Assembly (NCBI GenBank): GCA_965613205.1 | Contig: CBFDVE010000001.1 | Coordinates: forward strand, 1 to 25,984 | Direction: 5' to 3' | DNA: 25,984 nucleotides | Source of the DNA: an uncultured Rhodospirillaceae bacterium | GTDB lineage: Bacteria > Pseudomonadota > Alphaproteobacteria > Rhodospirillales > JABHCV01 | Part shown: positions 6,365 through 24,226 of the stretch, one piece after another | How the letters are laid out: each line of letters starts with the position of its first letter | Numbering within the stretch: position 1 is the stretch's first letter | Made by a program: the position numbers and the translations under genes | The notes under the pieces: model-generated | Database searches by the model: none | What the model was told of the DNA's origin: nothing | What the model saw: the letters and a program-made list of their open reading frames with translations, nothing else

Positions 6365-6401
6365 GGAAACCCTCTCCGCCACCCTTAATTTGCCTTGTAT
6401 C

Positions 6402-6430: not shown

Positions 6431-6452
6431 GTATAAACATTTAAAGCTTGAA
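6414..6452. promoter_or_regulatory. Candidate operator (TTCAAG/CTTGAA elements) overlapping both divergent -35 boxes
   Basis: TTCAAG at 6414 and 6426, inverted CTTGAA at 6447-6452, and near-palindrome TTAAAGCTTGAA at 6441-6452. Confidence 0.45.
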
Positions 6453-6476
6453 TTAAAAAGACACCGTTGGTATTTT
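6448..6476 (+). promoter_or_regulatory. Candidate sigma70 promoter of the alpha/beta hydrolase, probably giving a leaderless mRNA
   Basis: TTGAAT (6448-6453), 17-nt spacer, TATTTT (6471-6476). The ATG begins 8 nt after the -10 box and there is no SD. Confidence 0.5.
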
Positions 6477-6483
6477 TTCAATC

Positions 6484-7892: not shown

Positions 7893-8736
7893 AGGCGCGG
7901 TCTCCTGTGTGTTCTGGGATCAGGACCGGCGACCCGACCTGACGAAATTGCCCTTGCAACATAAGCAGGGCTCCGGCGATGACATTGCGGTCGATCAGGG
8001 CGCTGGCGAATTGTTCACCGCCATCAAGGGCGTCGCAGACATCCCGTTCAGAGAGCGGCCCCACATATTCGGTCACCAAGCGGTCGCCCAGATCGCTGTC
8101 GGGAGCCATATGGCGAGCCGGAATTCTGGTGATCGCCGGGTGGCCCGGAAGATCAACCGCGTTGGCGATCAGGGTCGCCGCCGCATCGGCCCCGGCGGCA
8201 TTTGTCGCCACCACGGTGACCGCATCGGCGATGCCGAGCGAATGGCTGCGCCCCTGCCATCCCGATGTCGCCACGCCCCGGCTGTGATGCCGCTCGGTGA
8301 CGACGATCTTGCCAACCCGATCAGCGCCGATGGCGGCCTCGATAGATTGTCCGGGGGTGAGATAAAACGCCACATCGCCACCGTTGTTGACGATGATTTT
8401 CTCGATACCTCCCTGATCGTCCATGGCCGCCAGAATTTCATCGGCGACGGCCCCGGCGACGGCCGCCATGGGGGTGACAAAAGTCGCCAGCATGGGGATC
8501 ACGGCCTGTTGCATACGCCGCGCCACCGGGCCGTGGAACAAGCGATCCCGGTCTGCGGCCAGCCGCAATTCCGGCAACTCATGGACCAGTTCCTGCAACA
8601 AACCCCGAAACCGCCCCACGGCCAGATCGTAAGCGTCTTGCCGACCGGGGCCGATGGCCTCGATGATCAGATCAATCGGCCCTTCGTGCAAATGCAGTCG
8701 GCGGCCATCGGCCAGAATACTGGCTTCCAGGCCCAT
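7885..8736 (-). CDS. UPF0280 family protein (ApbE-like flavin transferase fold), cytoplasmic, 283 aa
   Basis: Motifs HEGPIDLII, TPMAAVAGAVAD, VNNGGD, GVATSG and ADAAATLIAN; no signal or lipoprotein peptide; TAATG overlap with hnr. Confidence 0.88.
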   Translation of the reverse strand: MGLEASILADGRRLHLHEGPIDLIIEAIGPGRQDAYDLAVGRFRGLLQELVHELPELRLAADRDRLFHGPVARRMQQAVIPMLATFVTPMAAVAGAVADEILAAMDDQGGIEKIIVNNGGDVAFYLTPGQSIEAAIGADRVGKIVVTERHHSRGVATSGWQGRSHSLGIADAVTVVATNAAGADAAATLIANAVDLPGHPAITRIPARHMAPDSDLGDRLVTEYVGPLSERDVCDALDGGEQFASALIDRNVIAGALLMLQGQFRQVGSPVLIPEHTGDRAYG

Positions 8737-10190
8737 TATTTCGGCCTTTTTGGAACGCCGACAGGCGGGGCAATGGTGCGCATACTGTCGCCGTATTCGC
8801 CGCCGCTGGCGATCACATCATCGATTGACCGGACCGACTGTTGATGACCGCCCAGATCCAGGTAATCGCCCCGCGCCACGGTGAATTCCAGGGGGGCGAC
8901 GATGGCCGGGGTCGGCACATAGCCGAACGAATTGTCGGGCATGTCGGCGACATCGACCATCAGGGTAATACCGCCGCCGGGCCAGATGTAGGCGGGCGCG
9001 CCGCCGCAGGTCACCCGAGTATTCTTTTTTTGCACGGACCGGGTCAGTTTGACCGGATTGCGGGTCGCCCCGGACCGCAAGGAGCCCCCGGCCCCGGCCA
9101 TGAACAACACGGTGCACAGGGAAGGTTCGCAGTTTTCCGAGATCAGATCGACTGACGCCCTGAGGTGTTCCGGTAAGTCCTGCAATAGGGGCACCAGATT
9201 GTCGTCGAGAACATAGTAGCTAAATTGCTCGCCGGTGGTTGATACCATCAACAGGCTCAGTCCGGGCCGGGCCCCTTTTTTAGCGTTCCAGGGGCCGAGA
9301 ATAACCAGCGGGTCTTCAATATCCGTGCCGCCCCAGCCCAGGCCCGGTTCGGCCACCCTGAAATAGCGGCCCGGTGTCGATCGCCGACCGAGAATTTTAA
9401 TACCGGTCGGCTGCCAGCCCAGCACCTTGCCCGCCTGGTGTTCGGAAACCACGCCGGTGATATGATCATCAACGACGACCACTTCATCGACCAGCCCCAA
9501 CCACTGAGACGCAAACATGCCGATGGTCGCCGAGCCGCAGCCGACCCGCATTCGGTGTTCCTGTTGGCCATCGACAATGGGCGCCTGGCCGGCCTCAACG
9601 ATAACGCTGGTGCCGCCATCAATGGTCAGTTCAACCGGTCGCTTGTTGCACAGATCCATCAGGGTTTTACACGTGGTATCGCCTTCCGCTCTGGAACCGC
9701 CGGTCAGATGATCGACGCCGCCGAGGGACAGCATTTGCGAGCCATACTCGCTGGTCATGATATGGCCGACGGCCTCACCAAAGGCGCGGACCGTGGCCCC
9801 TTCGTGACCCAGATGCCGGTCCGTATCGATTTTGATTTTAACGCCGCAGTAGGAATAAATGGCCTCGGTGACCACGGTGACAAAATCGACCCCGCCTAAA
9901 TCGCGGCTGACAATAAAGGGGGCCGGTTTGTAATCGGGATAGGTGGTTCCGGCGCCAACGGCAGTAACAAAAACATCCCGGCCCGCGACCACCCGGCCAT
10001 CCCAGGTGGATTTCAGAAACGGCACCACTTCGCCACCTTTTTCCAGGGTCTGGTCGAGGATGGTCAGGGGATCGCAGCGGATGATCTTGCCTTTTTCGTT
10101 GGCGTAGCGATCGCACGCCCCGGCCCGGCCCTCGGCCACATAGCACATTACCGGGCAGGCATCGCAACGGACTTTTTCGCCCGCACTCAT
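8736..10190 (-). CDS. hnr: 6-hydroxynicotinate reductase (Fe-S flavoprotein), 484 aa
   Basis: N-terminal CDACPVMC-x9-C cluster motif, plus GAGTTYPDYKPAPFI, MRVGCGSATIG and WPGGGIT; lies directly after the Mo hydroxylase (ATGA overlap). Confidence 0.88.
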   Translation of the reverse strand: MSAGEKVRCDACPVMCYVAEGRAGACDRYANEKGKIIRCDPLTILDQTLEKGGEVVPFLKSTWDGRVVAGRDVFVTAVGAGTTYPDYKPAPFIVSRDLGGVDFVTVVTEAIYSYCGVKIKIDTDRHLGHEGATVRAFGEAVGHIMTSEYGSQMLSLGGVDHLTGGSRAEGDTTCKTLMDLCNKRPVELTIDGGTSVIVEAGQAPIVDGQQEHRMRVGCGSATIGMFASQWLGLVDEVVVVDDHITGVVSEHQAGKVLGWQPTGIKILGRRSTPGRYFRVAEPGLGWGGTDIEDPLVILGPWNAKKGARPGLSLLMVSTTGEQFSYYVLDDNLVPLLQDLPEHLRASVDLISENCEPSLCTVLFMAGAGGSLRSGATRNPVKLTRSVQKKNTRVTCGGAPAYIWPGGGITLMVDVADMPDNSFGYVPTPAIVAPLEFTVARGDYLDLGGHQQSVRSIDDVIASGGEYGDSMRTIAPPVGVPKRPK

Positions 10191-12901
10191 GACCGCGCCT
10201 CGGCTAATTTGATGGCCGCCAATACCCGGTGGGGCACGGCGGGCAATCTCTCTATTCTGGCCCCGCAGGCGTCGGTGATGGCGTTGAGAATGGCCGGGGC
10301 GGTGGGGATCAGAACATGCTCGCCCAGGCCCTTGGCCCCCATGGGGCCTTCCGGGTCGGGCACTTCGATCAGGATCGACTGCACATGGGGCATGTCGCCG
10401 ACCGTCGGGATCAGGTAGTCGTGCAGGTTTTCCGTGCGGCCCGGTATATATTCTTCCATCAGGGCCATGCCCAGCCCTTGTGCCACGCCGCCTTCGATTT
10501 GCCCTTCCGACAGCAACGGGTTGATCACCCGGCCCAGATCATGGGCGGCGGTGACGCGGGTGACCTTGACCGTGCCAAGCACCGTATCGACTTCAATTTC
10601 AGCCAGTTGCGCACCGTAGCCATAGACGGCATAAGGGATGCCCTGACCGTTTTCATCGAGCGCCGAGGTGGGCGGGTCATAGGTTTCTTGCGCCCACAGA
10701 ACGTAGCCGTTGGCTTGCACCGGCAAGTTCAACAGATCGATTTCCCGCTCCGCCTCGCCGTCACTGATCAGCAGTCGCCCACTTTCCAGGTTCAGCCGGG
10801 CTTTCGGCCCTGAATTGCTTTCCCGCAAGATAGTCTGCCGCAATGAGAGGCCGGCCCGTTCCGCCGCCTTGCCGGTGATGAAGGTCTGGCGCGAGGCCGA
10901 TGTCTTGCCGCAATCGGGAGTCAGGGCGGTATCCGGGCCGATCAGCGAGAAGCTTTCAATAGCCATGCCAAGGGCATCGGCACATATCTGGGTGATCACC
11001 GTGTTGGCGCCCTGGCCGATATCCGTCGCCCCCTGGTGCAGACACAACCGGCCTGTCGCCGTAATGCCCAGCCGTACGGTTGATGGGTTCGGCAGCGCCG
11101 TATTGCCGCAGCCATACCAGCACGAGGCCACGCCGATACCCTTTTTCGTGGTTGCCGATGTGGCATTGAATTTTTCGATTTCGCTGTTTGCCTCCTGCCA
11201 TCTGGGGATCAGGGCGTCCAGGCAATCGCCGATACCAACGCCCTGCAAGGTTTGACCACAGACCGTGCTGTCGCCATTTCCGAGGGCGTTGAGGCGGCGA
11301 AATTCGAGCCGGTCCATGTCACAGGCGGCGGCCAGATCATCATAAATCATTTCCTGCAAGATTGCCGCCTGGGGTACACCGAAGCCGCGAAAGGCCCCGG
11401 ACACCGGGCCGTTGGTGTGCAAGGCGCGGGTCTCTGCCCGGTAATGAGGCGTCAGGTAAGGGCCTGAGGCATGGACTGGCACCCGGTTGGCCACGGTCGG
11501 CCCCCAACTGGCATAGGCACCGGTGTTGAAATCGCCATCAAACTCCATGCCGGTGATGCGACCGTTCTCGTCCGTGCCAATACGGGCCGACATTCTGCCC
11601 GGATGGCGCTTGGTGGTCGAGGCCATCGATTCCGCCCGGCTGTAAACCATGCGACAGGGTTTGCCCGTTTTCAGGGCCGCCAAACCGATAAGGGGTTGCA
11701 GGGAAACATCCAGCTTGGAGCCGAAGCCACCGCCTGTGGCGGCTGGAATAATGCGCACTTTATCCGGCGGCAGGGCCATCATGGCGGCGGTATCGTCCCG
11801 GTCCATGATCGGTGCCTGGGTACAGGCCTGAATGACCAGGGTGTCGCCATCGAGCCAGGCGCAACCGGCTTCCGGCTCGATATAGGCGTGTTCCACATAG
11901 GCGGTTTCGACCGAACGCTCGATAACGTGAGCCGACCCATCGAGCGCCCCGGCGGCGTCGCCGCTGACCACCCGGCCCCGAACCAGAATGTTGCCGGGCC
12001 TGCTGTCATGCAGTTGAGGGGAGTCTTCGGCCTGGGTCATGTCCAGGTTTTCAGGTAACGGTGTCCAGGTGACAGGAAAATTATCCAGATTTAATACCGA
12101 GACGGCGGCGGCGTCACCGACCACCAGGGCCACCGCCTCGCCACGAAACAGGGCGACTTTTTCGGCCAGGGCCGGTTGGTCGGCATAGGGCGGAATGACC
12201 CCGAAACAATTCCTGCCGGGGATATCCCTGGCCGTCAGCACGACCTCCACGCCCGGCGTATGCCGGCCCCACTGATCGAGATCACCGAAGCTGAATTGGC
12301 CGTGGTGATGGGGCGAGCGAACGGCCCGCACCAGCAGGGCATTGGCGGGCCAGTGATCGGCCCCGAATATTTCTGAGCCGTCTATTTTTGCCCTGCCGTC
12401 CAGCCGCTCAACTGGGGCACCGACGGCATTTCCGGCGGCCGGCAGGATCGCCTGGGGGTGACTATTGCCGGCATCAACAACGGCATCGACTATTTTTTGA
12501 TAGCCGGTACAGCGACACAGCACGCCGCCCAGGGCATCCGCCACCTGGGCCCGGCTGGGCGTTGGATGGGTCGCCAGCAGGGCGCTCGCCGCCATCAACA
12601 TTCCCGGTGTGCAAATACCGCATTGGGCCGCCCCGTGCCGGGCCAGTGACTCCTGCAAGGGAGATAATCCGTCTTGCGACAATCCTTCGACGGTCACGAC
12701 TGTGCGATCTACGGCCTGGGCCGCCGGTGTCAGGCAGGCATAGACGGCCTGGCCATCGATCATGACGGTGCAGGCACCGCAATCCCCGGCGTTGCAGCCG
12801 ACCTTGGTGCCGCGCAGGTCGAGATTTTCGCGCAGGAAATTACTGAGCCGCTGGCCCGGTGCGGTGATGGCGACCGATTTTCCGTTGACGGTGGTTTTCA
12901 T
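10187..12901 (-). CDS. Xanthine-oxidase-family Mo hydroxylase with fused 2x[2Fe-2S] and Moco domains; probable nicotinate dehydrogenase catalytic subunit (NdhS+L+M fusion), 904 aa
   Basis: Fe-S motifs GCNAGDCGAC, QCGICTPG and CRCTGY; Moco motifs GGGFGSK, GAFRGFG, GQG and KGLGE. Segment GVASCWYGCGNTALPNP resembles, from memory, the N-terminus of Eubacterium barkeri NdhM; adjacent to hnr. Confidence 0.85.
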   Translation of the reverse strand: MKTTVNGKSVAITAPGQRLSNFLRENLDLRGTKVGCNAGDCGACTVMIDGQAVYACLTPAAQAVDRTVVTVEGLSQDGLSPLQESLARHGAAQCGICTPGMLMAASALLATHPTPSRAQVADALGGVLCRCTGYQKIVDAVVDAGNSHPQAILPAAGNAVGAPVERLDGRAKIDGSEIFGADHWPANALLVRAVRSPHHHGQFSFGDLDQWGRHTPGVEVVLTARDIPGRNCFGVIPPYADQPALAEKVALFRGEAVALVVGDAAAVSVLNLDNFPVTWTPLPENLDMTQAEDSPQLHDSRPGNILVRGRVVSGDAAGALDGSAHVIERSVETAYVEHAYIEPEAGCAWLDGDTLVIQACTQAPIMDRDDTAAMMALPPDKVRIIPAATGGGFGSKLDVSLQPLIGLAALKTGKPCRMVYSRAESMASTTKRHPGRMSARIGTDENGRITGMEFDGDFNTGAYASWGPTVANRVPVHASGPYLTPHYRAETRALHTNGPVSGAFRGFGVPQAAILQEMIYDDLAAACDMDRLEFRRLNALGNGDSTVCGQTLQGVGIGDCLDALIPRWQEANSEIEKFNATSATTKKGIGVASCWYGCGNTALPNPSTVRLGITATGRLCLHQGATDIGQGANTVITQICADALGMAIESFSLIGPDTALTPDCGKTSASRQTFITGKAAERAGLSLRQTILRESNSGPKARLNLESGRLLISDGEAEREIDLLNLPVQANGYVLWAQETYDPPTSALDENGQGIPYAVYGYGAQLAEIEVDTVLGTVKVTRVTAAHDLGRVINPLLSEGQIEGGVAQGLGMALMEEYIPGRTENLHDYLIPTVGDMPHVQSILIEVPDPEGPMGAKGLGEHVLIPTAPAILNAITDACGARIERLPAVPHRVLAAIKLAEARS

Positions 12902-13731
12902 GGACCTGGTTCCAGGGCCTGGGCGATTACACGGCGGACAATTTCGACCGCCGCGCTGCGTCGATAATCGGCAGTGGCGCGAATATCGTCGATCGGCGAG
13001 AGCGGCCCATTGACCAGGTTTTCGGCAATCTGAAATGATCCGATTTGTTGGCCGATCAGCGCGGTTTCAAGGTCGTTCAGGCGCACGGCCACCGGGCTAC
13101 AGGAGCCGACCGAGATGGCGATATCTTCGATCAACCCGTCATTTTCGACCAGCCGCACGGCGGCCATGACGATGGAAATGACCAGGTATTTGCGCGACCC
13201 CAGCTTGATAAAACCCGACCTGCCCCGTGCCCCGGTTTCGGGCACCACAATGGCGCTGAGCAATTCATCATCACGCAAAACCGTCTGCCGGGGTCCGGTC
13301 AAAAAGTCAGCCAAAGGCAGGGTGCGGGTTGCGGCTTGTGAGCACAGCTCAACCGAGGCTTCAAGGGTCAACAACACCGGCACCCCATCGGCGGCGGGGG
13401 AGGCGTTGCACAAATTTCCGGCCAAAGTGGCGGCGTTCTGAATTTGCCGGGAGCCGATTTCCCGGGCACACAGCTTCAGGCCATCGAAGGCGGCGGGCAG
13501 TTTTTCGTTGATGATATCGGTCCAGGTGGTGGCCCCGCCAATGCGCCAGCCTTCGGCGGTCTGGCTGATGCCGCGCAGTTCTTGAATGGCCGTAATATCC
13601 AGCACCGAACCTTGCAAAACCGGGGCCGTTGTCGCCGCATAGATATCGGTGCCACCGGCGACCACCTGATGATGCTGTCGGGCGATTAAATCCAGCGCGT
13701 CTGATAAACTGTCGGGGCGTGAATAGGTCAA
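12898..13731 (-). CDS. FAD-binding subunit of the Mo hydroxylase (NdhF/CoxM-like), 277 aa
   Basis: Motifs VAGGTD, IGSRQIQNAATLAGNLCNASPAAD and SPIDDIRATADYR; TTG start; ATGA overlap with the Mo subunit. Confidence 0.9.
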   Translation of the reverse strand: MTYSRPDSLSDALDLIARQHHQVVAGGTDIYAATTAPVLQGSVLDITAIQELRGISQTAEGWRIGGATTWTDIINEKLPAAFDGLKLCAREIGSRQIQNAATLAGNLCNASPAADGVPVLLTLEASVELCSQAATRTLPLADFLTGPRQTVLRDDELLSAIVVPETGARGRSGFIKLGSRKYLVISIVMAAVRLVENDGLIEDIAISVGSCSPVAVRLNDLETALIGQQIGSFQIAENLVNGPLSPIDDIRATADYRRSAAVEIVRRVIAQALEPGP

Positions 13732-13741
13732 GGAGCACCCA

Positions 13742-13765
13742 ATTATTCATTCGTACACAAATGGA
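13742..13765. promoter_or_regulatory. Operator site 1 (probable NicR-like MarR box)
   Basis: Minus strand TCCATTTGTGTACGAATGAATAAT, 21/24 identical to 19687-19710; starts at the last base of the ndhF -10 box and covers the predicted start site. Confidence 0.7.
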
Positions 13766-13793
13766 TTTTGCGACGGCACTCATTTCGTGTCAA
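13765..13793 (-). promoter_or_regulatory. Sigma70 promoter of the ndhF-ndh-hnr operon
   Basis: Perfect TTGACA (13793-13788), 17-nt spacer, CAAAAT (13770-13765). Confidence 0.7.
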
Positions 13794-13812
13794 CATCCAT
13801 TATATCTGCTAT

Positions 13813-14271
13813 ATGGCATCCATGAACGGCAAACCGGAGAGACAAGATTTGGCCAACAAGACCAACGCCTATCGGCTCAACGATCAGGTTGGATTTATCC
13901 TGCGCCGGGCAACACAAAGGCATCTGGCGATTTTCGCCAACCATATCGGTGATTTGACCTCGACCCAGTTTGCCGCCCTGGCCAAATTGCACGAAATCGG
14001 CCCGGTATCGCAAAACGAACTGGGCCGCCAGACCGCCATGGACGGGGCCACCATCAAGGGCGTCATCGACCGGCTGCGTAAACGAGGGTACGTGGAATCA
14101 AGGTCAGATGCTAACGACCGGCGGCGCATCTTCGTCGAACTGAACCCGGCCGGGCACAAGATTTACCAGGATTGCGTCGATGCCGCCCACGAGATTTCAG
14201 GCAAGACCCTGGCCCCCTTAACTGCCAGGGAAAGCGAGACTTTTCTCAATTTGCTCAGGAAAATCACCTAA
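13813..14271 (+). CDS. nicR: MarR-family regulator, NicR/BpsR-like
   Basis: YRLNDQVGFILRRATQRHLAIF...LTSTQFAAL...SQNELGRQTAMDGATIKGVIDRL...DRRR; divergent from the ndh operon. Start at ATG 13813 or 13822, no SD seen. Confidence 0.8.
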   Translation: MASMNGKPERQDLANKTNAYRLNDQVGFILRRATQRHLAIFANHIGDLTSTQFAALAKLHEIGPVSQNELGRQTAMDGATIKGVIDRLRKRGYVESRSDANDRRRIFVELNPAGHKIYQDCVDAAHEISGKTLAPLTARESETFLNLLRKIT

Positions 14272-14282
14272 GGAAAACGATT

Positions 14283-14909
14283 ATGAATAGCGAAAATACG
14301 GCGCTTCTGATGATCGACATTCAAAATGACTTCTGCCCCGGCGGTGCCCTGGCGGTGGCCGATGGCGACGCTGTGGTGCCCGTGACCAACCGCTTGCAGG
14401 ATCATTTCCCGGTCCGCGTACTGACCCAGGACTGGCACCCGGCGGATCATTCTTCTTTTGCCGCCAATCACTTGAACACCGAGCCCTTTTCCGTCATGGC
14501 CATGTCCTACGGCGATCAGGTGTTGTGGCCCAACCACTGCGTTCAGGGCAGTTCCGGTGCGCAATTTCACCGTAATCTGGTTACCGAGACCGCCCACATA
14601 GTTGTCCGCAAGGGCTATAATTCCACTATTGACAGCTATTCCGCATTTTTCGAAAACGACCACAAAACCAAAACCGGCCTGGCCGGATTGCTGAACGACC
14701 TGGGGATTGAAAGTGTTGTCCTGACCGGCCTGGCGATGGATTTTTGCGTCTGCTACACGGCCCTGGATGCGGTCGATCTGGGCTTTGGTGTGACCCTGGT
14801 TAGCGATGGGTGCCGGGCTATCGATCTGGACGGGTCCCTGGACGGGGCGATGAAATCCATGACTGATCGAGGCGTCACCTTCGCCACCAGCGCCGAGTTG
14901 CTGGCCTAA
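14283..14909 (+). CDS. pncA: Nicotinamidase/pyrazinamidase, 208 aa
   Basis: Motifs IDIQNDF, QDWH, WPNHC, RKG and GLAMDFCV; AAGGA SD 11 nt after the nicR stop region. Confidence 0.93.
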   Translation: MNSENTALLMIDIQNDFCPGGALAVADGDAVVPVTNRLQDHFPVRVLTQDWHPADHSSFAANHLNTEPFSVMAMSYGDQVLWPNHCVQGSSGAQFHRNLVTETAHIVVRKGYNSTIDSYSAFFENDHKTKTGLAGLLNDLGIESVVLTGLAMDFCVCYTALDAVDLGFGVTLVSDGCRAIDLDGSLDGAMKSMTDRGVTFATSAELLA

Positions 14910-15613
14910 ACGCCGATGTAATGGGCCAGCAGGGCCGGATCTTTTTCCAGCACGCGGGCGTCAATGTTTTCTCTGGCATAGCCGTTTTCGATAAAGGCCA
15001 CCCGGTCGGCGATGGACAGCACCGCATCGACCCGTTGTTCGACCAGCACCACGGCGACTCCTTCAGATTTCATCTGCACAATGACCCGGCGAATTTGCTC
15101 GATCATGGACGGCTGCAAACCTTCCGTCGGTTCGTCCAGCAGCAACACGCGGGGTTCGATGCAGAGCGCCCGTGCGGTCGCCAGCATCTGCTGCTCACCA
15201 CCTGATAACGTCCACGCCTGTTGATCCAGGCGCTGGCGCAACAAGGGGAATATATCGAGCACCCGGTCGCGGGTCTTGGCCTCTTGTTTGATTCCTCGAC
15301 CCCGCACCATCAGGCCAATTTCCATATTTTCCGCCACCGTCAGTTCGGCGAACAACCGCCGCCCCTGGGGGATATAACCGATGCCCTTGCCGGGCACCCG
15401 GTCGGCCGGCAAGGCGCTGATCTGCTCCCCATCCAGGAATATGCCGCCGCCGCGCACCGGCAGCAGCCCCATGATGGCCTTCATGATGGTGGTTTTGCCC
15501 GCCCCATTGCGCCCCAGCAGGCACAATATTTCCCCCGCATTAACCGACAAAGACAGGCCGTACAGGGCCTGAGCCTTGCCGTAATAGACATCGATATCGC
15601 GCACTTCCAGCAT
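14906..15613 (-). CDS. livF: Liv-type ABC transporter ATP-binding protein (LivF-like)
   Basis: Walker A GRNGAGKT, signature LSGGEQQ, Walker B LLLDEP; ATG 15613 in a TGATG overlap. Confidence 0.92.
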   Translation of the reverse strand: MLEVRDIDVYYGKAQALYGLSLSVNAGEILCLLGRNGAGKTTIMKAIMGLLPVRGGGIFLDGEQISALPADRVPGKGIGYIPQGRRLFAELTVAENMEIGLMVRGRGIKQEAKTRDRVLDIFPLLRQRLDQQAWTLSGGEQQMLATARALCIEPRVLLLDEPTEGLQPSMIEQIRRVIVQMKSEGVAVVLVEQRVDAVLSIADRVAFIENGYARENIDARVLEKDPALLAHYIGV

Positions 15614-16326
15614 CAACGGGTCCCCAGATAGGCGGCCTGAACATCGCCGTTGGCATGAATTTCGTCTGGTTTGCCCTCGGCCAGGATTTCACCAAAATTG
15701 AGCACGCTAATGTAGTCGGCGGTCTGCATGACCACGTTCATATTGTGTTCGATCAGCAAAATGGTGGTTTCGTGGGCGATGGAGCGGACCAGGGTGACGA
15801 AATCTTCAATTTCGCTGTCGGCCAGGCCCTGGGTCGGTTCATCCAGGATCAACAGGCGCGGTTTCTGGCCCAGGCCCATGGCGATTTCCAGCAACCGCTG
15901 GTGGCCGTAGCTTAAATCACCGGCGATCTGGCTGACCCGGTCGGCCATACCGACGGCGTCAAGGGCGGCGATCACCTGGGCATCGATGGCCGCCCGGTCA
16001 TTGCCCAGTCGCCGCTGCACGGCCAGGGCGACATTTTCGTGGCACGACAACCTGGCGAAAATGGATGTGATCTGGAAAGTGTAGGCCATGCCCATGGCAA
16101 TTCGATCATGGGCGGCCAGGGCGGTGACATCTTCGCCCAAAAACGTGACCCGCCCTTCCGACGCCGCAATGCGACCGCAGAGCAAATTGACGAAGGTGGT
16201 TTTACCCGCCCCGTTGGGTCCGATCAAGGCCCTGATCTGGCCTTCGGGTAAATCAAAGTCAACATCGTGGACCGCCTTCAAGCCGCCGAAGTTGCGGCCG
16301 AGGCCTGTTGTCGAGATCAGGTTCAT
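15613..16326 (-). CDS. livG: Liv-type ABC transporter ATP-binding protein (LivG-like)
   Basis: Motifs GPNGAGKT, LSYGHQR, ILDEP and IEHNM; ATG 16326 in an ATGA overlap. Confidence 0.92.
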   Translation of the reverse strand: MNLISTTGLGRNFGGLKAVHDVDFDLPEGQIRALIGPNGAGKTTFVNLLCGRIAASEGRVTFLGEDVTALAAHDRIAMGMAYTFQITSIFARLSCHENVALAVQRRLGNDRAAIDAQVIAALDAVGMADRVSQIAGDLSYGHQRLLEIAMGLGQKPRLLILDEPTQGLADSEIEDFVTLVRSIAHETTILLIEHNMNVVMQTADYISVLNFGEILAEGKPDEIHANGDVQAAYLGTR

Positions 16327-17267
16327 GGCAGCCATGGCGCCAGCCTTTTACGCACCTCACCGACCAGCCCCTGGCGGGCGAACAGGGTCAGCAAGACCAG
16401 GGCGACCCCGGCGATCAGCATGTAGGCGCTGGTAACGGCGCTGGAAAGATCAATCAGATAGAACATGAACAGCACACCCATGAACGGCCCCAGCGTGGTT
16501 CCGGCCCCGCCCAGCAAGACCCACAGCAGGGGAAAGATCGAATATTCGACGGTGGCGAAGGTCGCCCCGGCATAGCCGAACAGCAGCCCGTAGGTGGCCC
16601 CGGCGGCACCGGATATAACGCCGGAAAGAATAACCGCGATCAGCTTGTGGCGGAACACATTGAAACCCAACATGCGGACCCGGTCTTCGTTTTCCCGGAT
16701 TGCTACCAGCACCCGGCCCAGGTTGGAGCGCACCAGCACCAGCGAAATGATCAGGCAGGTGCCGAACAGGACCAGGGCGGCATAGTAGCGTGAGACGGGA
16801 TCGGAAAGGTCAATACCGGCAAAGACCCGCTGGCTTTGCTGAATGACAAATCCTTCGTCGCCCCGGGTGTATTGACCGAACAGCAGCACCGTCAGATAAC
16901 CGGCCTGGGCGAACATCAGGGTGACGATCATAAAAGCGACACCGGTCGTGCGCAGGGCCAGAAACCCGACCACCGAAGTCACCACCAAAGCGGCCAGCAG
17001 TCCGGCCAGCAAGGCCGGTCCCGGCGAAAGCCCTAGAAACTGGATCGACAACCCCATGCCGTACATGCCGCTGGCGAAAAACAGCGCGTGGCCGAGGCTG
17101 AGCAATCCGGTGTAGCCAAACAGGATGTTGTAGCCAATGGCATAGGACGCCAGCACCATAATGCGGGCCAGATTGCCATGGTGATAGGCGGGCAGGACCG
17201 ATTGCAAGGCGAACAAGACGATAATCACGCCGCCATGCAAGAGCCAGGATTTTGCCCCGTCGGTCAT
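16323..17267 (-). CDS. livM: Liv-type ABC transporter permease (LivM-like), 314 aa
   Basis: Motifs GYTGLLSLGHALFF, AIRENEDR and LLGGAGT with multiple hydrophobic helices. Start at ATG 17267 (ATGA overlap), not the ORF-track start at 17984. Confidence 0.9.
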   Translation of the reverse strand: MTDGAKSWLLHGGVIIVLFALQSVLPAYHHGNLARIMVLASYAIGYNILFGYTGLLSLGHALFFASGMYGMGLSIQFLGLSPGPALLAGLLAALVVTSVVGFLALRTTGVAFMIVTLMFAQAGYLTVLLFGQYTRGDEGFVIQQSQRVFAGIDLSDPVSRYYAALVLFGTCLIISLVLVRSNLGRVLVAIRENEDRVRMLGFNVFRHKLIAVILSGVISGAAGATYGLLFGYAGATFATVEYSIFPLLWVLLGGAGTTLGPFMGVLFMFYLIDLSSAVTSAYMLIAGVALVLLTLFARQGLVGEVRKRLAPWLP

Positions 17268-18145
17268 ACCGGGCGCTTCCCGAACAAGCCTTGCGGCCGG
17301 AACACCAGAACCGAGGCGACCAGCAGGGTGGCCAAAATTTTGGCCAGCGTTGGCGAGAAAAAGACCGAAATAATGCCATCGCTCATGCCGATCAGCACGG
17401 CGGCGACCACCGTTCCCCGCAGGCTGCCAAGGCCACCCAGGATAACAACGATGAAAGACAGCAGCAGTGGGTCGCCACCCATCAGGTAGTGGGCCTGCTG
17501 AATGGGAACGATCAGCACGGCGGCCATGGCCGCCAGTCCGGCGCCGACGCCGAAGACAATGCTGTACACCCGTTTGACCCGGATGCCGAAGGCCTGGGCG
17601 ATATCGCTGTCGAGCTGGGTGGCCCGCAAAATCAGGCCGATGCGGGTCTTGCTGACCGTCGCCCAAACCCCCAACAGCAACACGATAGCGGCCCCGATAA
17701 CGAACAGTTTGTAGCCCGAATAGCCGAACCAGGGGAGGGTAATGCGAATGTTGAAGGGCGGCGGCACGGGCCGCGCATCGGGGCCGTAAGTCATTAGAGT
17801 GACTTGCTGAATGATGTAAAGAACGCCGATGGTGGCGACGATGGTCGCTTCCGGATCGTAATCCAGCCGCTTTAAAATGGTCCAGTCGATGGCGGCAGCC
17901 AACAACCCGGTCACGATCGGCACGATAATCAGCGCCAGCACGAAACCGATTGAGGCATCGCCGCCGACCTGGGAGGTCAGCCACCAGGCCAGCACGGCAC
18001 CGAGCATAAAAAATTCACCGTGGGCGATATTGACCACCCGCATGGTGCCGAACACCAGACTCAGGCCAACGGCGGTCAGGGCCAGCACAGCCGCCTGCAC
18101 CGCGCCTTCCAGCGAGGCGAGCAAAAGATAAGGGCCTAATTCCAT
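17264..18145 (-). CDS. livH: Liv-type ABC transporter permease (LivH-like), 293 aa
   Basis: Motifs GLSLVFGTMRVVNIAHGEF and VILGGLGSLRG; hydrophobic. Confidence 0.92.
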   Translation of the reverse strand: MELGPYLLLASLEGAVQAAVLALTAVGLSLVFGTMRVVNIAHGEFFMLGAVLAWWLTSQVGGDASIGFVLALIIVPIVTGLLAAAIDWTILKRLDYDPEATIVATIGVLYIIQQVTLMTYGPDARPVPPPFNIRITLPWFGYSGYKLFVIGAAIVLLLGVWATVSKTRIGLILRATQLDSDIAQAFGIRVKRVYSIVFGVGAGLAAMAAVLIVPIQQAHYLMGGDPLLLSFIVVILGGLGSLRGTVVAAVLIGMSDGIISVFFSPTLAKILATLLVASVLVFRPQGLFGKRPV

Positions 18146-18156
18146 TTAGCGAAAAC

Positions 18157-18188
18157 GAAGGTCACGGCCGGTCGAGGCCGTGACCTTC
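18157..18188 (-). terminator. Intercistronic hairpin (attenuating or mRNA-stabilising) after the binding-protein gene
   Basis: Perfect 13-bp stem GAAGGTCACGGCC / GGCCGTGACCTTC with a 6-nt loop, followed by GTTTT on the minus strand. Confidence 0.7.
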
Positions 18189-18195
18189 TCTATCA

Positions 18196-19500
18196 TCAGA
18201 ACGATTGCTTGGTGTAATCGACTTCATCGGGATAGTAGGTATCCTCGATTGACGTGGTATGGGCCAGCACCAGTTTCTGGTTGGTCACCTTGGTGATGTA
18301 TTGATGACCGAAGACCTGATGGGTCTTGCCGTTAAAGCGTTTGGCCCCCTGGGGATGCTGGCGCGAATGGGCCATGTCGGACATCGCCTCGACCGCTTCT
18401 ATCAGCTTGGCCCGGTCTTTCGGCCCCCGGTACCCGGAAGCTTCCATGCCGGCTTTAATCACATAGAGCGTTTCCCAACAACCAAACATATGAGCGTAGG
18501 TGGCGACATCCTTGGAGTCAGCCAGGGAAGCGCCATTGTTGTCGACCCCAACCGAGGCGCGGAAGAATTTGTCGTATTCCGACTGGTTGGATTGGGCATA
18601 ACGGGGATTGCCTTCCCAGAAATAGGTGCCTTCCAGGAATTCCAGCCCCGGACTGGCCAGATCGACCGCTTCGAGACTATCAATAAAGCCAAAGATTTCG
18701 GGCCGTTTGGAGCCGAAGAATTCACCCAGTTCCTTGACGAATGTCAGCACCGCTGGCCCGACCATGACATGGTAGATGACTTCCGTTTCCTTGGGGATTT
18801 TGGGGAAGTATTTGGTGAATGATGATTCTCTCGGCGGGATGGCGATTTTGGCGATCACATCGCCGCCGATCTTTTCAATGGCGGCGGAGAAATAATCCCG
18901 GTGATCGTAGCCGAAGGCGAAGTCGGGGAAAATCATGGTGACTTTCTTGCCCAGGTTTTTGGCCACAAACGGGGCCATCGCCTGAACCTGACTTTTGACA
19001 TCGGTAATGCCCGGTTGCAGGGTGTAGCGATTAAGTATACCGCTGGCCACATGATGGCCTTCGGAAACCACGAAATAGGGCAATTTCAGTTCACCCGCTC
19101 GCGGGGCCGAGCCGATCACGACGTGGCTGAACAAGGTGCCGAAACCGACATCGCAGTTGAGCTGATTGGCAAATTTTTCGACCACTTCGGCACCGCGCTT
19201 GGGCGAGGTTCCATCATCTTCGGCGATGATTTCGACCCTGCGGCCATTGATGCCACCGCCCGCGTTGATGACTTTTGCCGCCGCTGCGGTGGTGCGACCG
19301 TACCATTTGCCATAGGCGGCACCGATACCGGTGCGATGAACCTGAAAACCAATTTTTATGGGTTCGGCGCTGTGCACCTGATTGTAGCCGATCAGGCCCG
19401 GAAATGCCGTGGCGCCGGCAATGACCCCGGCACCCGCGCCAAGGGTCTTCAAGACTTTGCGGCGGTCCTGCACGCTTGATTTGATTATTTTTTTGGTCAT
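18196..19500 (-). CDS. ABC substrate-binding protein (LivK-like PBP1 fold) with a Tat signal peptide, 434 aa
   Basis: N-terminal DRRKVLK twin-arginine motif plus hydrophobic stretch; GGINGRRVEIIAEDDGT; GGAGG SD; tandem stops TGA TGA TAG. Confidence 0.9.
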   Translation of the reverse strand: MTKKIIKSSVQDRRKVLKTLGAGAGVIAGATAFPGLIGYNQVHSAEPIKIGFQVHRTGIGAAYGKWYGRTTAAAAKVINAGGGINGRRVEIIAEDDGTSPKRGAEVVEKFANQLNCDVGFGTLFSHVVIGSAPRAGELKLPYFVVSEGHHVASGILNRYTLQPGITDVKSQVQAMAPFVAKNLGKKVTMIFPDFAFGYDHRDYFSAAIEKIGGDVIAKIAIPPRESSFTKYFPKIPKETEVIYHVMVGPAVLTFVKELGEFFGSKRPEIFGFIDSLEAVDLASPGLEFLEGTYFWEGNPRYAQSNQSEYDKFFRASVGVDNNGASLADSKDVATYAHMFGCWETLYVIKAGMEASGYRGPKDRAKLIEAVEAMSDMAHSRQHPQGAKRFNGKTHQVFGHQYITKVTNQKLVLAHTTSIEDTYYPDEVDYTKQSF

Positions 19501-19535
19501 TTTGTTGTCCTCCCTAAAAGCAGTTTGTCACCTGT

Positions 19536-19579
19536 CCCCAAAGGCTTGCGAGGGCAATGCAGCCGAAGCCTCTCTGGGG
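19536..19579 (-). other. Predicted stem-loop in the 5' leader of the binding-protein mRNA
   Basis: Minus strand CCCCAGAGAGGCTT...AAGCCTTTGGGG, about 12 bp with a 2-nt bulge and an 18-nt loop. Confidence 0.35.
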
Positions 19580-19583
19580 TTTT

Positions 19584-19620
19584 TACACAAATAGCCAAGG
19601 GCATATTGTGTGTACACAAA
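19584..19620. promoter_or_regulatory. Two partial copies of the NicR-like box flanking the ABC -10 element
   Basis: Minus strand TTTGTGTACAC (19620-19610), which includes most of the perfect palindrome TGTGTACACA (19609-19618), and ATTTGTGTA (19592-19584). Confidence 0.5.
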
Positions 19621-19631
19621 CAACTTGTCCA
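19603..19631 (-). promoter_or_regulatory. Candidate sigma70 promoter of the ABC operon
   Basis: TGGACA (19631-19626), 17-nt spacer, CAATAT (19608-19603); the operator-like box lies in the spacer. Confidence 0.5.
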
Positions 19632-19686
19632 GAAAAATATTTACCGCCACCGCGCCCCCTATTGACTTTACTTCGCCATTACGGCT

Positions 19687-19710
19687 TTCATTTGTATACC
19701 AATGAATAAT
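19687..19710. promoter_or_regulatory. Operator site 2 (probable NicR-like MarR box) upstream of hydantoinase A
   Basis: TTCATTTGTATACCAATGAATAAT; the first 20 nt are an 18/20 palindrome; 21/24 identical to site 1. Confidence 0.7.
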
Positions 19711-19729: not shown

Positions 19730-21790
19730 ATGACAGGGTCCGGTTCGGCACAGGTGGTCGGTGTGGATGTCGGCGGAACCTTCACTGACCTGGTCATGCT
19801 CGACCAGAAATCCGGCCAGGTGCGCCTGGCCAAGGCCCCGAGCACGCTGGATAATCAGGCCTTCGGCGTGCTCGCTGCCTTAGATCAGGCGGGGACCGAT
19901 TTACGCAGGGTCAATTTGATTGTCCATGGCACCACCACCACCACCAATGCGGTACTGGAACGCAAATTGTGCAGGGTCGGCCTGATCACCACCGCCGGAT
20001 TTCGCGATGTGCTGGAACTGGGCCGCCGGACCAGACCGCAAGCCTATGGCATGACCGGCAAATTCCGCCCGGTGATCGCCCGCAATCTGCGCCTGGAAGT
20101 GGCCGAACGCATGGACGCTGGTGGGCAAATCGTGACGCCGCTCGATGAAGCCGCCGTCAAGGTCGCCGCCAAGCGCCTGATCGAGAAGGACTGCGAGGCC
20201 ATCGTTATTCACTTCCTGCACGCCTACGCCAACCCGGCCCACGAGCTTCGGGCGGCGGAAATTGTCGGTCAAATGTGGCCCAATGATTACATCACCATGG
20301 GCCACACCCTGCTATCGGAAAGCCGCGAGTTCGAGCGCGGCGTGACGGCGGCGATCAATGCTTCCGTCCAGCCCCTGCTGGAACGCTATATTTCGAAACT
20401 GGTGCAGGAACTGGCCCATAGGGGCTACCACGGTGAAATGCTGGTGATGAACGGCAACGGCGGCATGGTGTCGTCCCGGCGGGTCGCCAAAGAGGCGGCC
20501 AAAACCGTCATGTCGGGCCCCGCCTCGGGGGTCATTGCGGCGGCCTATACGGGCCGCAAGGCCGGCATTGCCGATCTGATCACTTATGACATGGGCGGCA
20601 CGTCCACCGATGTGGCGCTGATCCGCAATTTCGAGCCGTCCGTTTCCAGCGAAATCGAAATCGAATACGCCATGCCGATCCATGTGCCGATGATCGATGT
20701 GCGCACGGTGGGGGCCGGTGGCGGCTCTATCGCCAGGGTCAATTCCGCCGGATTGCTGGAAGTCGGCCCGGAAAGTGCCGGGGCCCATCCCGGCCCGATC
20801 AGTTATGGACAGGGCGGTGAATTGCCAACCATATCGGACGCTAACCTGTTGCTCGGTCGCCTGAACACGGGAAAAATGAACGCGGTGCAAGGCAATGTCG
20901 CCATCGATCACATCAAGGACATTTTCGCCACTAAATTAGGCCGGCCTCTGGGCCTGGATGCAATCCTGGCCGCCGCCGCCGTGATCCGGGTCGCCAACAC
21001 CAAAATGGGCGGGGCGATCCGCATGGTCTCGGTATCGTTGGGTCTGGACCCCAGGGATTTTGCCCTGTTTGCCTTTGGCGGGGCCGGACCCCTGCACGCC
21101 ACGGCACTGGCCCGCGAGCTCGGCGTGCCACAAGTGCTGGTGCCGTGCCGACCGGGCATCACCAACGCGCTCGGCTGCGTCGTCGCCGATTTACGCCACG
21201 ATTTCGTCAATACCCTGAACAAGCCGCTGGATCTGGTCGATATGGATGAGGTCCACGCCCTGTTCAACAGCCAGATCGCCGAGGGCGAAAAATTGATCGG
21301 CAATGAAGTGATCGAGATCAGGTCGATCAAACGGTTGCACAGCGTCGATATGCAGTTTATCGGCCAGACCCATTTGTTGCGTGTGCCGCTGCAATCCACA
21401 ACGCCCGACCGGGAAACCTTGCGGCGCCTTTTTGAAGACGTCTATTTCGCGCGCTTCCGGGTCGAACTGGATGACATTAGAGCCAATCTGGTCAACGTCA
21501 ACACGTCGGTAATCGGCGTCCGGGCGGAACTTGATCTGTCCATCCTGATCGATCCGGCGGGTCGAAAAGAAACCCTGGAGGAGGCCAAAACAGAAAACCG
21601 CCCGGCCTATTTTCTTGGGCAGTGGCAGGACACCCCGGTCTACTGGCGGGATTTTCTGCCCCTTTCGTTTACCCTGACCGGTCCGGCAATTATCGAGCAA
21701 ATGGATACCACCATCCTGATCGAACCGGGCGACACCGCCGAAGGGGACGTTCATGGCAATATCATTATTTCCATCGGGGCGCGCTTGTGA
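19730..21790 (+). CDS. Hydantoinase/oxoprolinase family ATP-binding subunit (HyuA/OplA-like), 686 aa
   Basis: Motifs DVGGTFTD, HGTTTTTNA, SGPASG, DMGGTSTDV, GAGGGSI and FGGAGPLHA; GAGG SD before ATG 19730. Confidence 0.93.
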   Translation: MTGSGSAQVVGVDVGGTFTDLVMLDQKSGQVRLAKAPSTLDNQAFGVLAALDQAGTDLRRVNLIVHGTTTTTNAVLERKLCRVGLITTAGFRDVLELGRRTRPQAYGMTGKFRPVIARNLRLEVAERMDAGGQIVTPLDEAAVKVAAKRLIEKDCEAIVIHFLHAYANPAHELRAAEIVGQMWPNDYITMGHTLLSESREFERGVTAAINASVQPLLERYISKLVQELAHRGYHGEMLVMNGNGGMVSSRRVAKEAAKTVMSGPASGVIAAAYTGRKAGIADLITYDMGGTSTDVALIRNFEPSVSSEIEIEYAMPIHVPMIDVRTVGAGGGSIARVNSAGLLEVGPESAGAHPGPISYGQGGELPTISDANLLLGRLNTGKMNAVQGNVAIDHIKDIFATKLGRPLGLDAILAAAAVIRVANTKMGGAIRMVSVSLGLDPRDFALFAFGGAGPLHATALARELGVPQVLVPCRPGITNALGCVVADLRHDFVNTLNKPLDLVDMDEVHALFNSQIAEGEKLIGNEVIEIRSIKRLHSVDMQFIGQTHLLRVPLQSTTPDRETLRRLFEDVYFARFRVELDDIRANLVNVNTSVIGVRAELDLSILIDPAGRKETLEEAKTENRPAYFLGQWQDTPVYWRDFLPLSFTLTGPAIIEQMDTTILIEPGDTAEGDVHGNIIISIGARL

Positions 21791-23526
21791 GCATAGATCC
21801 GATCACGCTGAGCGTTATTCAGGCCGGGTTGCAACAGGTTTGCGACGAAATGGATTTGAGCTTTTCCCGCGCCGCCTTCTCGCCGGTCATATCCGAAGCC
21901 AATGACCGGTCGGACGGCATCTACGCGGCCACCGATGGCGCCCTGATCGCCCAGGGGGCCGGGGGCTTGCCCATCTTTGTCGGCACCATGCAGTATTCGA
22001 CCCGCACCCTGATAGAAATGATCGCGGCGGGCACGGTGTCGCCGCCAAAACCTGACGACATATATATCGTTAACGATCCTTACCTGGGCGGCACCCATCT
22101 GATGGATGTTCGTTTCGCCCGGCCTTTTTATCGCGACGGCGAAATTTATTGCTGGCTGTCCAATACCGGTCATTGGCCCGATACGGGCGGCTCGGTGCCG
22201 GGTGGGTTTTCCGCCTCGGCCACGGCGGTCGAACAGGAAGGCCTGCGACTGCCGCCCGTGCGCCTGTTCAAGCAAGGGCAACTGGACAGGGAAATCTATT
22301 CGATCATCTGTTCCAACATCCGGGTTTCCGATCAGCGCATTGGCGATGTTAAAGCCCAGGCCGCCGCCCTGATCACCGGCGAAGAACGTTTGAACGAGTT
22401 GCTGGACCGCTACGGTGACGACACGGTCACCGACGCCATCGAAGAACTGCGCCGCCGCGCCGCCACCCAGATGCGGGCCTGTATTGCCACCATTGCCGAC
22501 GGCACATATACATCGACCGCCTATATCGACAGCGACGGGGTCGATAACACGCCGCTGGAAATCAATCTGGAAATCACCAGGGCGGGTGACGACCTGACCT
22601 TTGATTTCAACAAATCGAGCCCGCCCTGCAAGGGCCCCATGAATTCGGTTCTGGCGACCACCCTCAGTTCGGTCTACCTGGCCATGCGCCATATATTTCC
22701 CGAAGTCCCGATCAGCGCCGGGGCGTTCGAACCTTTGCAGGTGATCCGTCCGGCGGGAACTTTTCTCGATGCTCACTATCCGCGGCCCGTGTCGGGCTGT
22801 GCGGCGGAAGTTTCCCAGCGTATCGCCGAAGCGGTGTTCGCGGCCCTGATCAAAGCCCTGCCCGACCGGGTAACGGCGGCACCGGCGGGCACCAGCGGCA
22901 ATTTTGCCCTCGGCGGGCATGACCCGGAGGCGGGCAAGGATTTCGTCATGTATCAACTGACCGGCGGCGGCTATGGCGGCAACGCCGATCACGACGGCCT
23001 GACCAACGGCTGTTCGACCATCGGCATTTCCAAATCCCCACCGGTGGAAATTATGGAACAAACCTATCCGGTGCTTTATCACCACTACGCCCTGCGCCAA
23101 GGGTCCGGCGGGGCCGGGGCACAGCGCGGCGGGTTCGGCCTGGATTACGAAGTGGAATTGCGGCGCGGCCATGCGCTCGCCAGTTTCGTCATGGACCATG
23201 GCCGGTTCGGCCCGCAAGGGGCCCTGGGGGGGGGTGACGGGGCGTGTAATAAAGTGGTGGTCAAACGGGGTGGCAAATCCTATACACCGGTTCATCTGTC
23301 GAAAGAACAGGATATCCCCCTGCAACCGGGAGATCGGGTGCATGTGCAAACCCCCGGCGGCGGCGGTTACGGCGACCCGTTTTCCAGGCCCGCCGAGGCG
23401 GTTCTGGAAGACGTTATCCTGGAACGCTACACCGCCACCCAGGCCCGCGACTTGTTTGGTGTCGTTATTAGTGGCGAGCCGCTTTCGGTAGATCAGGAAG
23501 AAACGTCACGATTGCGCGAAGAATAA
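21787..23526 (+). CDS. Hydantoinase B/oxoprolinase family metal-binding subunit (HyuB/OplB-like), 579 aa
   Basis: Motifs DEM, AFSPVISEAND, NDPYLGGTHLMD, GHWPDTGG and TPGGGGYGDP; GTG start in a GTGA overlap with the subunit A stop. Confidence 0.93.
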   Translation: MSIDPITLSVIQAGLQQVCDEMDLSFSRAAFSPVISEANDRSDGIYAATDGALIAQGAGGLPIFVGTMQYSTRTLIEMIAAGTVSPPKPDDIYIVNDPYLGGTHLMDVRFARPFYRDGEIYCWLSNTGHWPDTGGSVPGGFSASATAVEQEGLRLPPVRLFKQGQLDREIYSIICSNIRVSDQRIGDVKAQAAALITGEERLNELLDRYGDDTVTDAIEELRRRAATQMRACIATIADGTYTSTAYIDSDGVDNTPLEINLEITRAGDDLTFDFNKSSPPCKGPMNSVLATTLSSVYLAMRHIFPEVPISAGAFEPLQVIRPAGTFLDAHYPRPVSGCAAEVSQRIAEAVFAALIKALPDRVTAAPAGTSGNFALGGHDPEAGKDFVMYQLTGGGYGGNADHDGLTNGCSTIGISKSPPVEIMEQTYPVLYHHYALRQGSGGAGAQRGGFGLDYEVELRRGHALASFVMDHGRFGPQGALGGGDGACNKVVVKRGGKSYTPVHLSKEQDIPLQPGDRVHVQTPGGGGYGDPFSRPAEAVLEDVILERYTATQARDLFGVVISGEPLSVDQEETSRLREE

Positions 23527-23532
23527 CAAAGA

Positions 23533-23561
23533 TTGACATAAATTCCGTGAAAAGTGATATT
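23533..23561 (+). promoter_or_regulatory. Sigma70 promoter of the parDE module with an overlapping inverted repeat
   Basis: TTGACA (23533-23538), 17-nt spacer, GATATT (23556-23561). GACATAAAT (23535-23543) and ATTTGTATC (23559-23567) form a 7/9 inverted repeat. Confidence 0.6.
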
Positions 23562-23586
23562 TGTATCTTGTCGAGAGGACACGGAA

Positions 23587-23835
23587 ATGAATTTCAGCCT
23601 GACCCCCAAACTGGAACAGTTCGTGCGAGAGCGCGCTCGTTCCGGTGACTACAACAACGCCAGCGAAGTGGTTCGCGATGCCATCCGGTTGCTCAAACGC
23701 CGGGAAGAAGAACGGGCTTTAAAATTGCAACGCCTGCGTAGCGCAATCAGCGAAGGAGACGCGGCGGTGAAGCAAGGTCACTATACCGACTTGAATTCCG
23801 ACAAGGCGTTGGACGTACTTTTTGCCGAGCTATAA
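23587..23835 (+). CDS. parD: Type II antitoxin, ParD family (ribbon-helix-helix), 82 aa
   Basis: MNFSLTPKLEQFV...SGDYNNASEVVRDAIRLL...LRSAISEG; GAGGA SD; overlaps the toxin gene. Confidence 0.88.
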   Translation: MNFSLTPKLEQFVRERARSGDYNNASEVVRDAIRLLKRREEERALKLQRLRSAISEGDAAVKQGHYTDLNSDKALDVLFAEL

Positions 23836-24139
23836 AAAACTGCGCCTTGCAGACCCGGCCAGAAAAGACCTGGTGGAAATCGGTAAGTACACATGGCAAA
23901 CCTGGGGTGCCGCCCAAAAGCGAAAATATCTGGGGCAGATCAAAAACGCATTTAAGATCATCAAGGACAGGCCGGAAATTGGGCCTCCCCGGGATGACAT
24001 CGATATCGGTTTGCGCAGCCATCCGGTTAACCGCCATATTATCTACTACCGGATAGGCGAAAAAGAATTGATCATCGTCCGGGTTTTGCATCAAAGCATG
24101 GATTGGGCCGTTGTTGCCCGGCAGTCACAAAACGGTTAA
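23822..24139 (+). CDS. parE: Type II toxin, RelE/ParE family, 105 aa
   Basis: LADPARKDLVEIGKYTWQTWGAAQ...RSHPVNRHIIYYR...IVRVLHQSMD; TTG start within the antitoxin 3' end. Confidence 0.88.
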   Translation: MPSYKKLRLADPARKDLVEIGKYTWQTWGAAQKRKYLGQIKNAFKIIKDRPEIGPPRDDIDIGLRSHPVNRHIIYYRIGEKELIIVRVLHQSMDWAVVARQSQNG

Positions 24140-24201: not shown

Positions 24202-24213
24202 ATTCAATTGAAT
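24202..24213. promoter_or_regulatory. Perfect 12-bp palindrome just upstream of the mttB-like RBS
   Basis: ATTCAATTGAAT, ending 13 nt before ATG 24227. Confidence 0.3.
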
Positions 24214-24226
24214 GGTGGAGATCATT

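Follow-up and report, generated by a model that had tools for sequence, protein, structure and literature searches.

A conserved 20-bp palindrome as the probable operator of a BpsR-like MarR regulator in an alphaproteobacterial nicotinate gene cluster

Introduction

The best-studied relative of the regulator considered here is BpsR of Bordetella, a MarR-family repressor of nic promoters that is released by 6-hydroxynicotinate via Tyr15, His23, Arg26 and His32; its DNA site was called unclear in 2019 (PMC6837509). In Pseudomonas putida KT2440, nicotinate catabolism is under the control of another MarR-type repressor, NicR, which acts on the nicC and nicX operons (PMC10269826) and in which the residues that bind 6-hydroxynicotinate in BpsR are not conserved (PMC6837509). 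Gene clusters of the Hnr type have been described for Azorhizobium caulinodans (AZC_2790-2804) and Bradyrhizobium japonicum (blr3818-3830), and these resemble the locus studied here in encoding nicotinate dehydrogenase, a homologue of Hnr, a putative ATP-binding cassette (ABC) transporter for nicotinate and two conserved but unknown proteins (PMC3511419). Here, we analyse a stretch of 25,984 nucleotides from an uncultured Rhodospirillaceae bacterium (GenBank assembly GCA_965613205.1, contig CBFDVE010000001.1), which is the whole of contig C1 of that assembly and is called the window in the following. It contains a MarR gene (13813-14271), genes for a nicotinate hydroxylase and Hnr, and three copies of a 20-bp palindrome. 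With a probability of about 85%, as judged from sequence comparison, these palindromes are the operators of the MarR protein, which would act as a repressor shutting off four transcription units and would likely be released by 6-hydroxynicotinate.

Candidate operators in the window

The initial annotation had pointed out two 24-mers matching at 21 of 24 positions and had read them as directional sites, each pointing into its downstream gene. Both are indeed present: attattcattcgtacacaaatgga occupies positions 13742-13765 and corresponds to TCCATTTGTGTACGAATGAATAAT on the minus strand, and ttcatttgtataccaatgaataat at 19687-19710 differs from TCCATTTGTGTACGAATGAATAAT at three of the 24 positions. 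The conserved unit, however, is a symmetric 20-bp palindrome, WTCRTTnGYRYRCnAAYGAW, and the TAAT extension of the 24-mers is not kept in orthologous sites, the flanks of which are simply A/T-rich. Symmetry of the unit and lack of conservation of the flank render any notion of the site pointing into a gene meaningless. Three full copies of the palindrome are found in the window, scored here with the position weight matrix (PWM) described below:

13746-13765: candidate operator 1, TTCATTCGTACACAAATGGA, 32.2 bits, in the 81-bp divergent region between marR and the gene for the flavin adenine dinucleotide (FAD) subunit of the hydroxylase
19605-19624: candidate operator 2, ATTGTGTGTACACAAACAAC, 25.4 bits, 105-124 bp upstream of the start of the gene for the substrate-binding protein of an ABC importer
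19687-19706: candidate operator 3, TTCATTTGTATACCAATGAA, 30.4 bits, ending 23 bp before the hyuA ATG at 19730
13793-13765, minus strand: predicted sigma-70-like promoter TTGACA-N17-CAAAAT of the hydroxylase/Hnr operon, from a consensus scan (10 of 12 matches)
13813-14271, plus strand: MarR-family regulator of 152 amino acids, the proposed operator-binding protein (Pfam MarR PF01047, 48.6 bits against a cut-off of 24.6)

With the marR ATG 47 bp downstream, operator 1 can serve both divergent units, and operator 3 is self-complementary at 18 of its 20 positions. Two partial sites had also been proposed near the ABC promoter; one of them, TTTGTGTACAC, is not partial at all but equals the full operator 2, whereas the other, ATTTGTGTA (19584-19592), scores -0.5 bits and is no site.

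When up to three mismatches were allowed, the core TTCATTnGTATACnAATGAA matched the window at two places only (13746-13765 and 19687-19706), with 0.01 matches expected from 100 shuffles, and the complete assembly (2.77 Mb in 498 contigs) yielded a single extra, weak three-mismatch match on another contig. At a threshold of 25 bits, the PWM retrieved exclusively the three sites of the window from the assembly, and none of ten block shuffles of the genome reached this score. The best match outside the window (TTTGTTGTTATACAAACGAT, C18:1107-1126, 23.6 bits) is located between the 3' ends of two convergent open reading frames (ORFs) and is probably not a functional target. It was rejected, as were genome matches of 20-21 bits, which occur no more often than in shuffled sequence (about 1.3 per genome).

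The TTGACA-N17-CAAAAT promoter, which had been noted beforehand as adjoining site 1, was recovered by the consensus scan, and its last base touches operator 1. As read from the sequence, operator 2 spans the spacer and the -10 hexamer of TGGACA-N17-CAATAT, a weak minus-strand element, and operator 3 overlaps the -10 hexamer of TTGACT-N18-TTTCAT (19662-19691). All three operators touch or overlap promoter-like -10 elements, these elements being consensus matches rather than mapped transcription starts.

Conservation of the motif

Using the MarR protein as the query, 80 related loci (47-65% identity) were fetched, most of them from various orders of the Alphaproteobacteria. The PWM was built iteratively from orthologous loci and symmetrised; its information content is 26 bits. 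It exhibits dyad symmetry, with an invariant TT (positions 5-6) and an invariant AA (positions 15-16) spaced 10 bp, or one helical turn, apart. Scanning the genome and orthologous clusters with such a matrix had been suggested as a check of the original proposal, and the outcome was that the motif is conserved at orthologous promoters: 115 sites of at least 16 bits were present in the 1.39 Mb of 81 loci, compared with about one in shuffled sequence. Of these sites, 98 precede the FAD-subunit gene, marR, hyuA, hnr or the substrate-binding-protein gene by no more than 400 bp, counted from the gene start, with median distances of 29-66 bp (39 bp for the FAD-subunit gene, 53 bp for marR, 66 bp for the substrate-binding-protein gene and 29 bp for hyuA). 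Most of the remaining sites precede the permease of a more divergent ABC system by about 1.3 kb and are thus placed before an unlabelled binding-protein gene. Across more than 100 loci of Alphaproteobacteria, the motif fronts the same genes as in the window.

Plasmid NZ_CP155730.1 of the culturable Sagittula stellata E-37 carries the same cluster with the MarR gene and three sites, and the genes are annotated there as 6-hydroxynicotinate reductase, UPF0280, amino acid synthesis family, hydantoinase A/B, ABC transporter and MarR. On this plasmid (locus L179, region 12807-14031; sites at 12844, 12945 and 13888), two operators are situated in the divergent spacer and the third directly before hnr, and genes for a ferredoxin-NADP reductase and the alpha subunit of a Rieske oxygenase lie within the regulated units. 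Three contigs binned as Verrucomicrobiia and Acidimicrobiales (L038, L084 and L085) encode the same MarR (47-53% identity) together with hnr and UPF0280 genes, which suggests horizontal transfer or mis-binning.

Co-occurrence of regulator and motif

The first 80 loci had been chosen by their MarR protein, and a link between regulator and site cannot be tested with them. Therefore, a sample selected by Hnr alone was used, for which 400 alphaproteobacterial genomes were drawn evenly. Hnr was found in 62 of these genomes, and about 20 kb around hnr could be scanned in 57 of the 62. At E ≤ 1e-28, the MarR protein is encoded in 45 of the 62 Hnr-positive but in only 8 of the 338 Hnr-negative genomes; at E ≤ 1e-27, the number for Hnr-positive genomes rises to 51 of 62. 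The MarR gene usually resides less than 10 kb from hnr and is thus linked to nicotinate-catabolic genes. The motif was distributed over the scanned loci as follows:

MarR at E ≤ 1e-28 (40 loci): motif at the operon promoter in 36
MarR at about 1e-27 to 1e-28, narrowly missing the cut-off (7 loci): motif at the operon promoter in 7
No MarR match even at E ≤ 1e-12 (8 loci): motif at the operon promoter in 0

Taken together, loci with a MarR orthologue at E ≤ 1e-27 have the motif in 43 of 47 cases, compared with none of eight in genomes without MarR. Of the four exceptions with MarR but without motif, two are cut short by the end of a contig, and the others, G050 and G331, are evaluable and negative; one further locus (G083) was too short to judge. 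The eight genomes that lack both regulator and motif (G059, G064, G090, G122, G275, G315, G351 and G390) are each at least 96% complete. The idea that the palindrome is the operator of the adjacent MarR is thus supported both by phylogenetic footprinting and by a co-occurrence that ties the site to this BpsR-like protein.

An alphaproteobacterial hydroxylase/Hnr operon without MarR orthologue and without motif was seen at loci L116, L118, L121, L122, L127, L129, L131 and L132. As neither is present in these eight genomes, their regulation must differ. A Pfam scan of hand-picked ORFs beside MarR-less loci revealed no alternative regulator, most of the picks being spurious ORFs of high GC content.

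Proposed mechanism and alternatives

The sites exist, are conserved at the same promoters and co-occur with the regulator. We infer from sequence that the protein binds them physically, that it represses rather than activates, where the promoters are positioned and what the effector is. In the mechanism that we propose, a MarR homodimer would set its two recognition helices into successive major grooves, and binding would cover the -10 and start region of each promoter. Repression would affect the operon for nicotinate hydroxylase, Hnr, UPF0280 and DUF1185 proteins, the regulator's own marR-pncA unit, the Liv-type ABC importer and hyuAB. A metabolite of the pathway, most likely 6-hydroxynicotinate, would bind the repressor and free it from the DNA. 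A common regulon of the hydroxylase/Hnr operon, the importer and hyuAB had been put forward in the initial annotation and is supported by our analysis, but the number of units given there, three, has to be raised to four because marR-pncA shares operator 1.

Several observations weigh against this interpretation. The genomes G050 and G331 carry MarR and yet have no motif near hnr; conversely, G168 has the motif, 262 bp from a contig end, and no detected MarR. Related genomes are not independent, which means that co-occurrence statistics overstate significance, and we therefore quote counts and no P-value. When the 400 genomes were searched with a degenerate pattern, YYRTTNGYRYRCNAAYRR, MarR-positive genomes had on average 1.28 matches compared with 0.81 for the reversed control; this genome-wide count is only weakly enriched, and the pattern is too loose to be used as evidence. 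The promoters are consensus matches only, with weak -10 hexamers in two of three cases. Finally, the position equivalent to BpsR His23 (position 28) is occupied by F in 85, Y in 18 and H in just 8 of 111 clade members.

The last point bears on the effector. BpsR structures align with residues 16-151 of the MarR protein from the window (6PCP, E = 7e-23; 6PCO, E = 1e-22), and in this alignment Tyr15, His23, Arg26 and His32 of BpsR correspond to Y20, F28, R31 and H37. Because three of the four ligand-contacting residues are kept, 6-hydroxynicotinate is a plausible effector; throughout the clade, the three are nearly invariant (Y in 109, R in 111 and H in 102 of the 111 members). The compound is also the first committed intermediate of both the oxidative and the reductive route and the known inducer of BpsR (PMC6837509). 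On the other hand, the replacement of His23 by Phe, or by Tyr in some members, implies that the ligand may differ. The MarR protein could bind the very same sites and respond to nicotinate, nicotinamide or 1,4,5,6-tetrahydro-6-oxonicotinate (THON), a variant of our explanation that concerns the ligand only and that we regard as a tangible possibility, though clearly short of probable. It is favoured by the location of pncA within the regulator's own operon and by the presence of the reductive Hnr route instead of the NicC route of Bordetella and Pseudomonas (PMC3511419).

A further alternative is that the palindrome is bound by another transcription factor, either a GntR/HutC-type regulator or the second MarR protein encoded in the window (3624-4229). 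Operators of the GntR/HutC type have a GT-N-AC core, and the central TnGTATACnA of the palindrome resembles GntR-type operators; moreover, a second MarR-family gene is at hand, and G168 combines the motif with the lack of a detectable orthologue of the first MarR. Nevertheless, we consider this very unlikely, as the scanned ORFs of the window contain no GntR domain or gene and the only other regulator is the MarR paralogue, which shares 35% identity over 98 residues with the first, belongs to a separate coenzyme A (CoA)-pathway operon and is not represented by an orthologue at any of the loci with the motif, while the motif tracks the first MarR in the Hnr-selected sample. Lastly, the palindromes can hardly be hairpins acting in the 5' untranslated region of transcripts or a generic repeat without regulatory role: operators 1 and 3 do precede start codons closely, would be partly transcribed and are self-complementary, but the sequence of the arms is conserved. 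At five of the seven pairs of arm positions that were tested, the half-sites vary independently of each other, as expected for a site bound by a protein and not for a hairpin. Moreover, sites are found in both orientations and at divergent positions that are not transcribed, and within the genome the motif is restricted to these promoters; it is also absent where MarR is absent.

Genes of the cluster

The transcription units that would be controlled by the MarR repressor were assigned with Pfam and NCBIfam:

7311-13731, minus strand: five-gene molybdenum hydroxylase/Hnr operon
12898-13731, minus strand: FAD subunit of the molybdenum hydroxylase
10187-12901, minus strand: fused 2Fe-2S/Mo subunit of the molybdenum hydroxylase
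8736-10190, minus strand: Hnr-like reductase of 484 amino acids (homologues at 65-71% identity are annotated as 6-hydroxynicotinate reductase)
7885-8736, minus strand: UPF0280 protein
7311-7892, minus strand: AA_synth/DUF1185 protein
14283-14909, plus strand: pncA, nicotinamidase (NCBIfam PRK11609 nicotinamidase/pyrazinamidase, 226 bits against a cut-off of 174)
14906-19500, minus strand: Liv-type ABC importer with a substrate-binding protein, two permeases and two ATPases (Pfam Peripla_BP_6, BPD_transp_2 and ABC_tran)
19730-23526, plus strand: hyuA and hyuB, ATP-dependent lactamase of the hydantoinase/oxoprolinase type (Pfam Hydantoinase_A and Hydantoinase_B)

The PF01047 match of the regulator covers residues 63-120 of a 167-residue ORF, and matches to MarR-family entries in the PDB number 56. 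Starting 11 nt after marR, pncA is probably co-transcribed with it, and the order marR-pncA is also found at loci L007, L009, L010 and L018. The importer and hyuAB diverge from a 229-bp spacer. For hyuAB, the best NCBIfam match is caprolactamase alpha, which falls under its cut-off.

Downstream of hyuB, the plus strand encodes a ParD antitoxin/ParE toxin pair (23554-24139) and then an MttB-superfamily methyltransferase (24212-25801; Pfam MTTB, 177 bits). No operator was detected in front of the latter, the only nearby PWM match (7.7 bits) lying inside the gene, which places it outside the MarR regulon by the operator criterion.

The second MarR gene (3624-4229, minus strand) sits inside a separate minus-strand operon that also encodes an AMP-ligase (34-1653), an acyl-CoA dehydrogenase, an enoyl-CoA hydratase and a protein resembling bifunctional salicylyl-CoA 5-hydroxylase (4070-6481; NCBIfam PRK08255, 1273 bits against a cut-off of 1078). 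There is no nicotinate operator near this gene, and the operon looks like an independent CoA-dependent pathway for an aromatic acid with its own regulator.

Discussion

A published operator or regulon for this MarR clade was not found in the literature searched, although one may still exist. We tentatively propose, at a little below an even chance, that the locus represents an undescribed alphaproteobacterial regulon of a BpsR-like MarR in which HyuAB, PncA and a Liv-type importer are linked with the reductive (Hnr/THON) nicotinate pathway, with a GTRTAC core that is perhaps shared with the wider BpsR/NicR family. If the core is shared, it could become possible to predict the operator of Bordetella BpsR from sequence. 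The palindrome is a concrete candidate for the DNA site of a clade of MarR repressors of nicotinate pathways, the best-studied relative of which had no defined site in 2019. It also constitutes independent evidence, at the level of regulation, for assigning hyuAB, pncA and the Liv-type transporter to the alphaproteobacterial Hnr-route nicotinate pathway and may thereby aid the annotation of poorly characterised genes. In other respects the system would be a conventional local one, a MarR repressor with palindromes overlapping promoters being of a well-known kind.

Outside the Alphaproteobacteria, the PWM was applied to the loci of nine homologues at 35-43% identity, i.e., in the range of BpsR, and found no site of at least 12 bits apart from one weak match of 14.3 bits. 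At three of the nine (L172, L173 and L178; 35-40% identity), TATAnCGTGTACGCnATAA-like palindromes are located just upstream of the regulator's own gene, and they share their GTGTAC core with the alphaproteobacterial operator. Such palindromes are a candidate operator type for the BpsR/NicR clade.

Among solved structures, the closest relative of the MarR protein is PDB 2NNN (E = 3e-40, aligned over residues 15-150), an uncharacterised "probable transcriptional regulator" whose molecule name in the entry gives no function, ligand or operator and which thus contributes a fold but not a mechanism. Greater guidance comes from BpsR of Bordetella bronchiseptica/pertussis, which matches over the full length and is a dimeric repressor of the MarR type, likewise encoded in a nicotinate-catabolic cluster. 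It differs in sharing only about 38% identity with the protein from the window and in controlling the oxidative NicC/NicX route, whereas the regulon described here would comprise the reductive Hnr route together with hyuAB, pncA and the ABC importer. NicR resembles the MarR protein in type and in the pathway that it governs. When NicR is judged by its published description, the MarR protein is probably closer to BpsR, because three of the residues that contact 6-hydroxynicotinate are kept here and are not conserved in NicR. For the Hnr-type clusters of A. caulinodans and B. japonicum, neither a regulator nor an operator was described (PMC3511419); the window adds a candidate for each, and it adds hyuAB and pncA to the set of genes that would be regulated.

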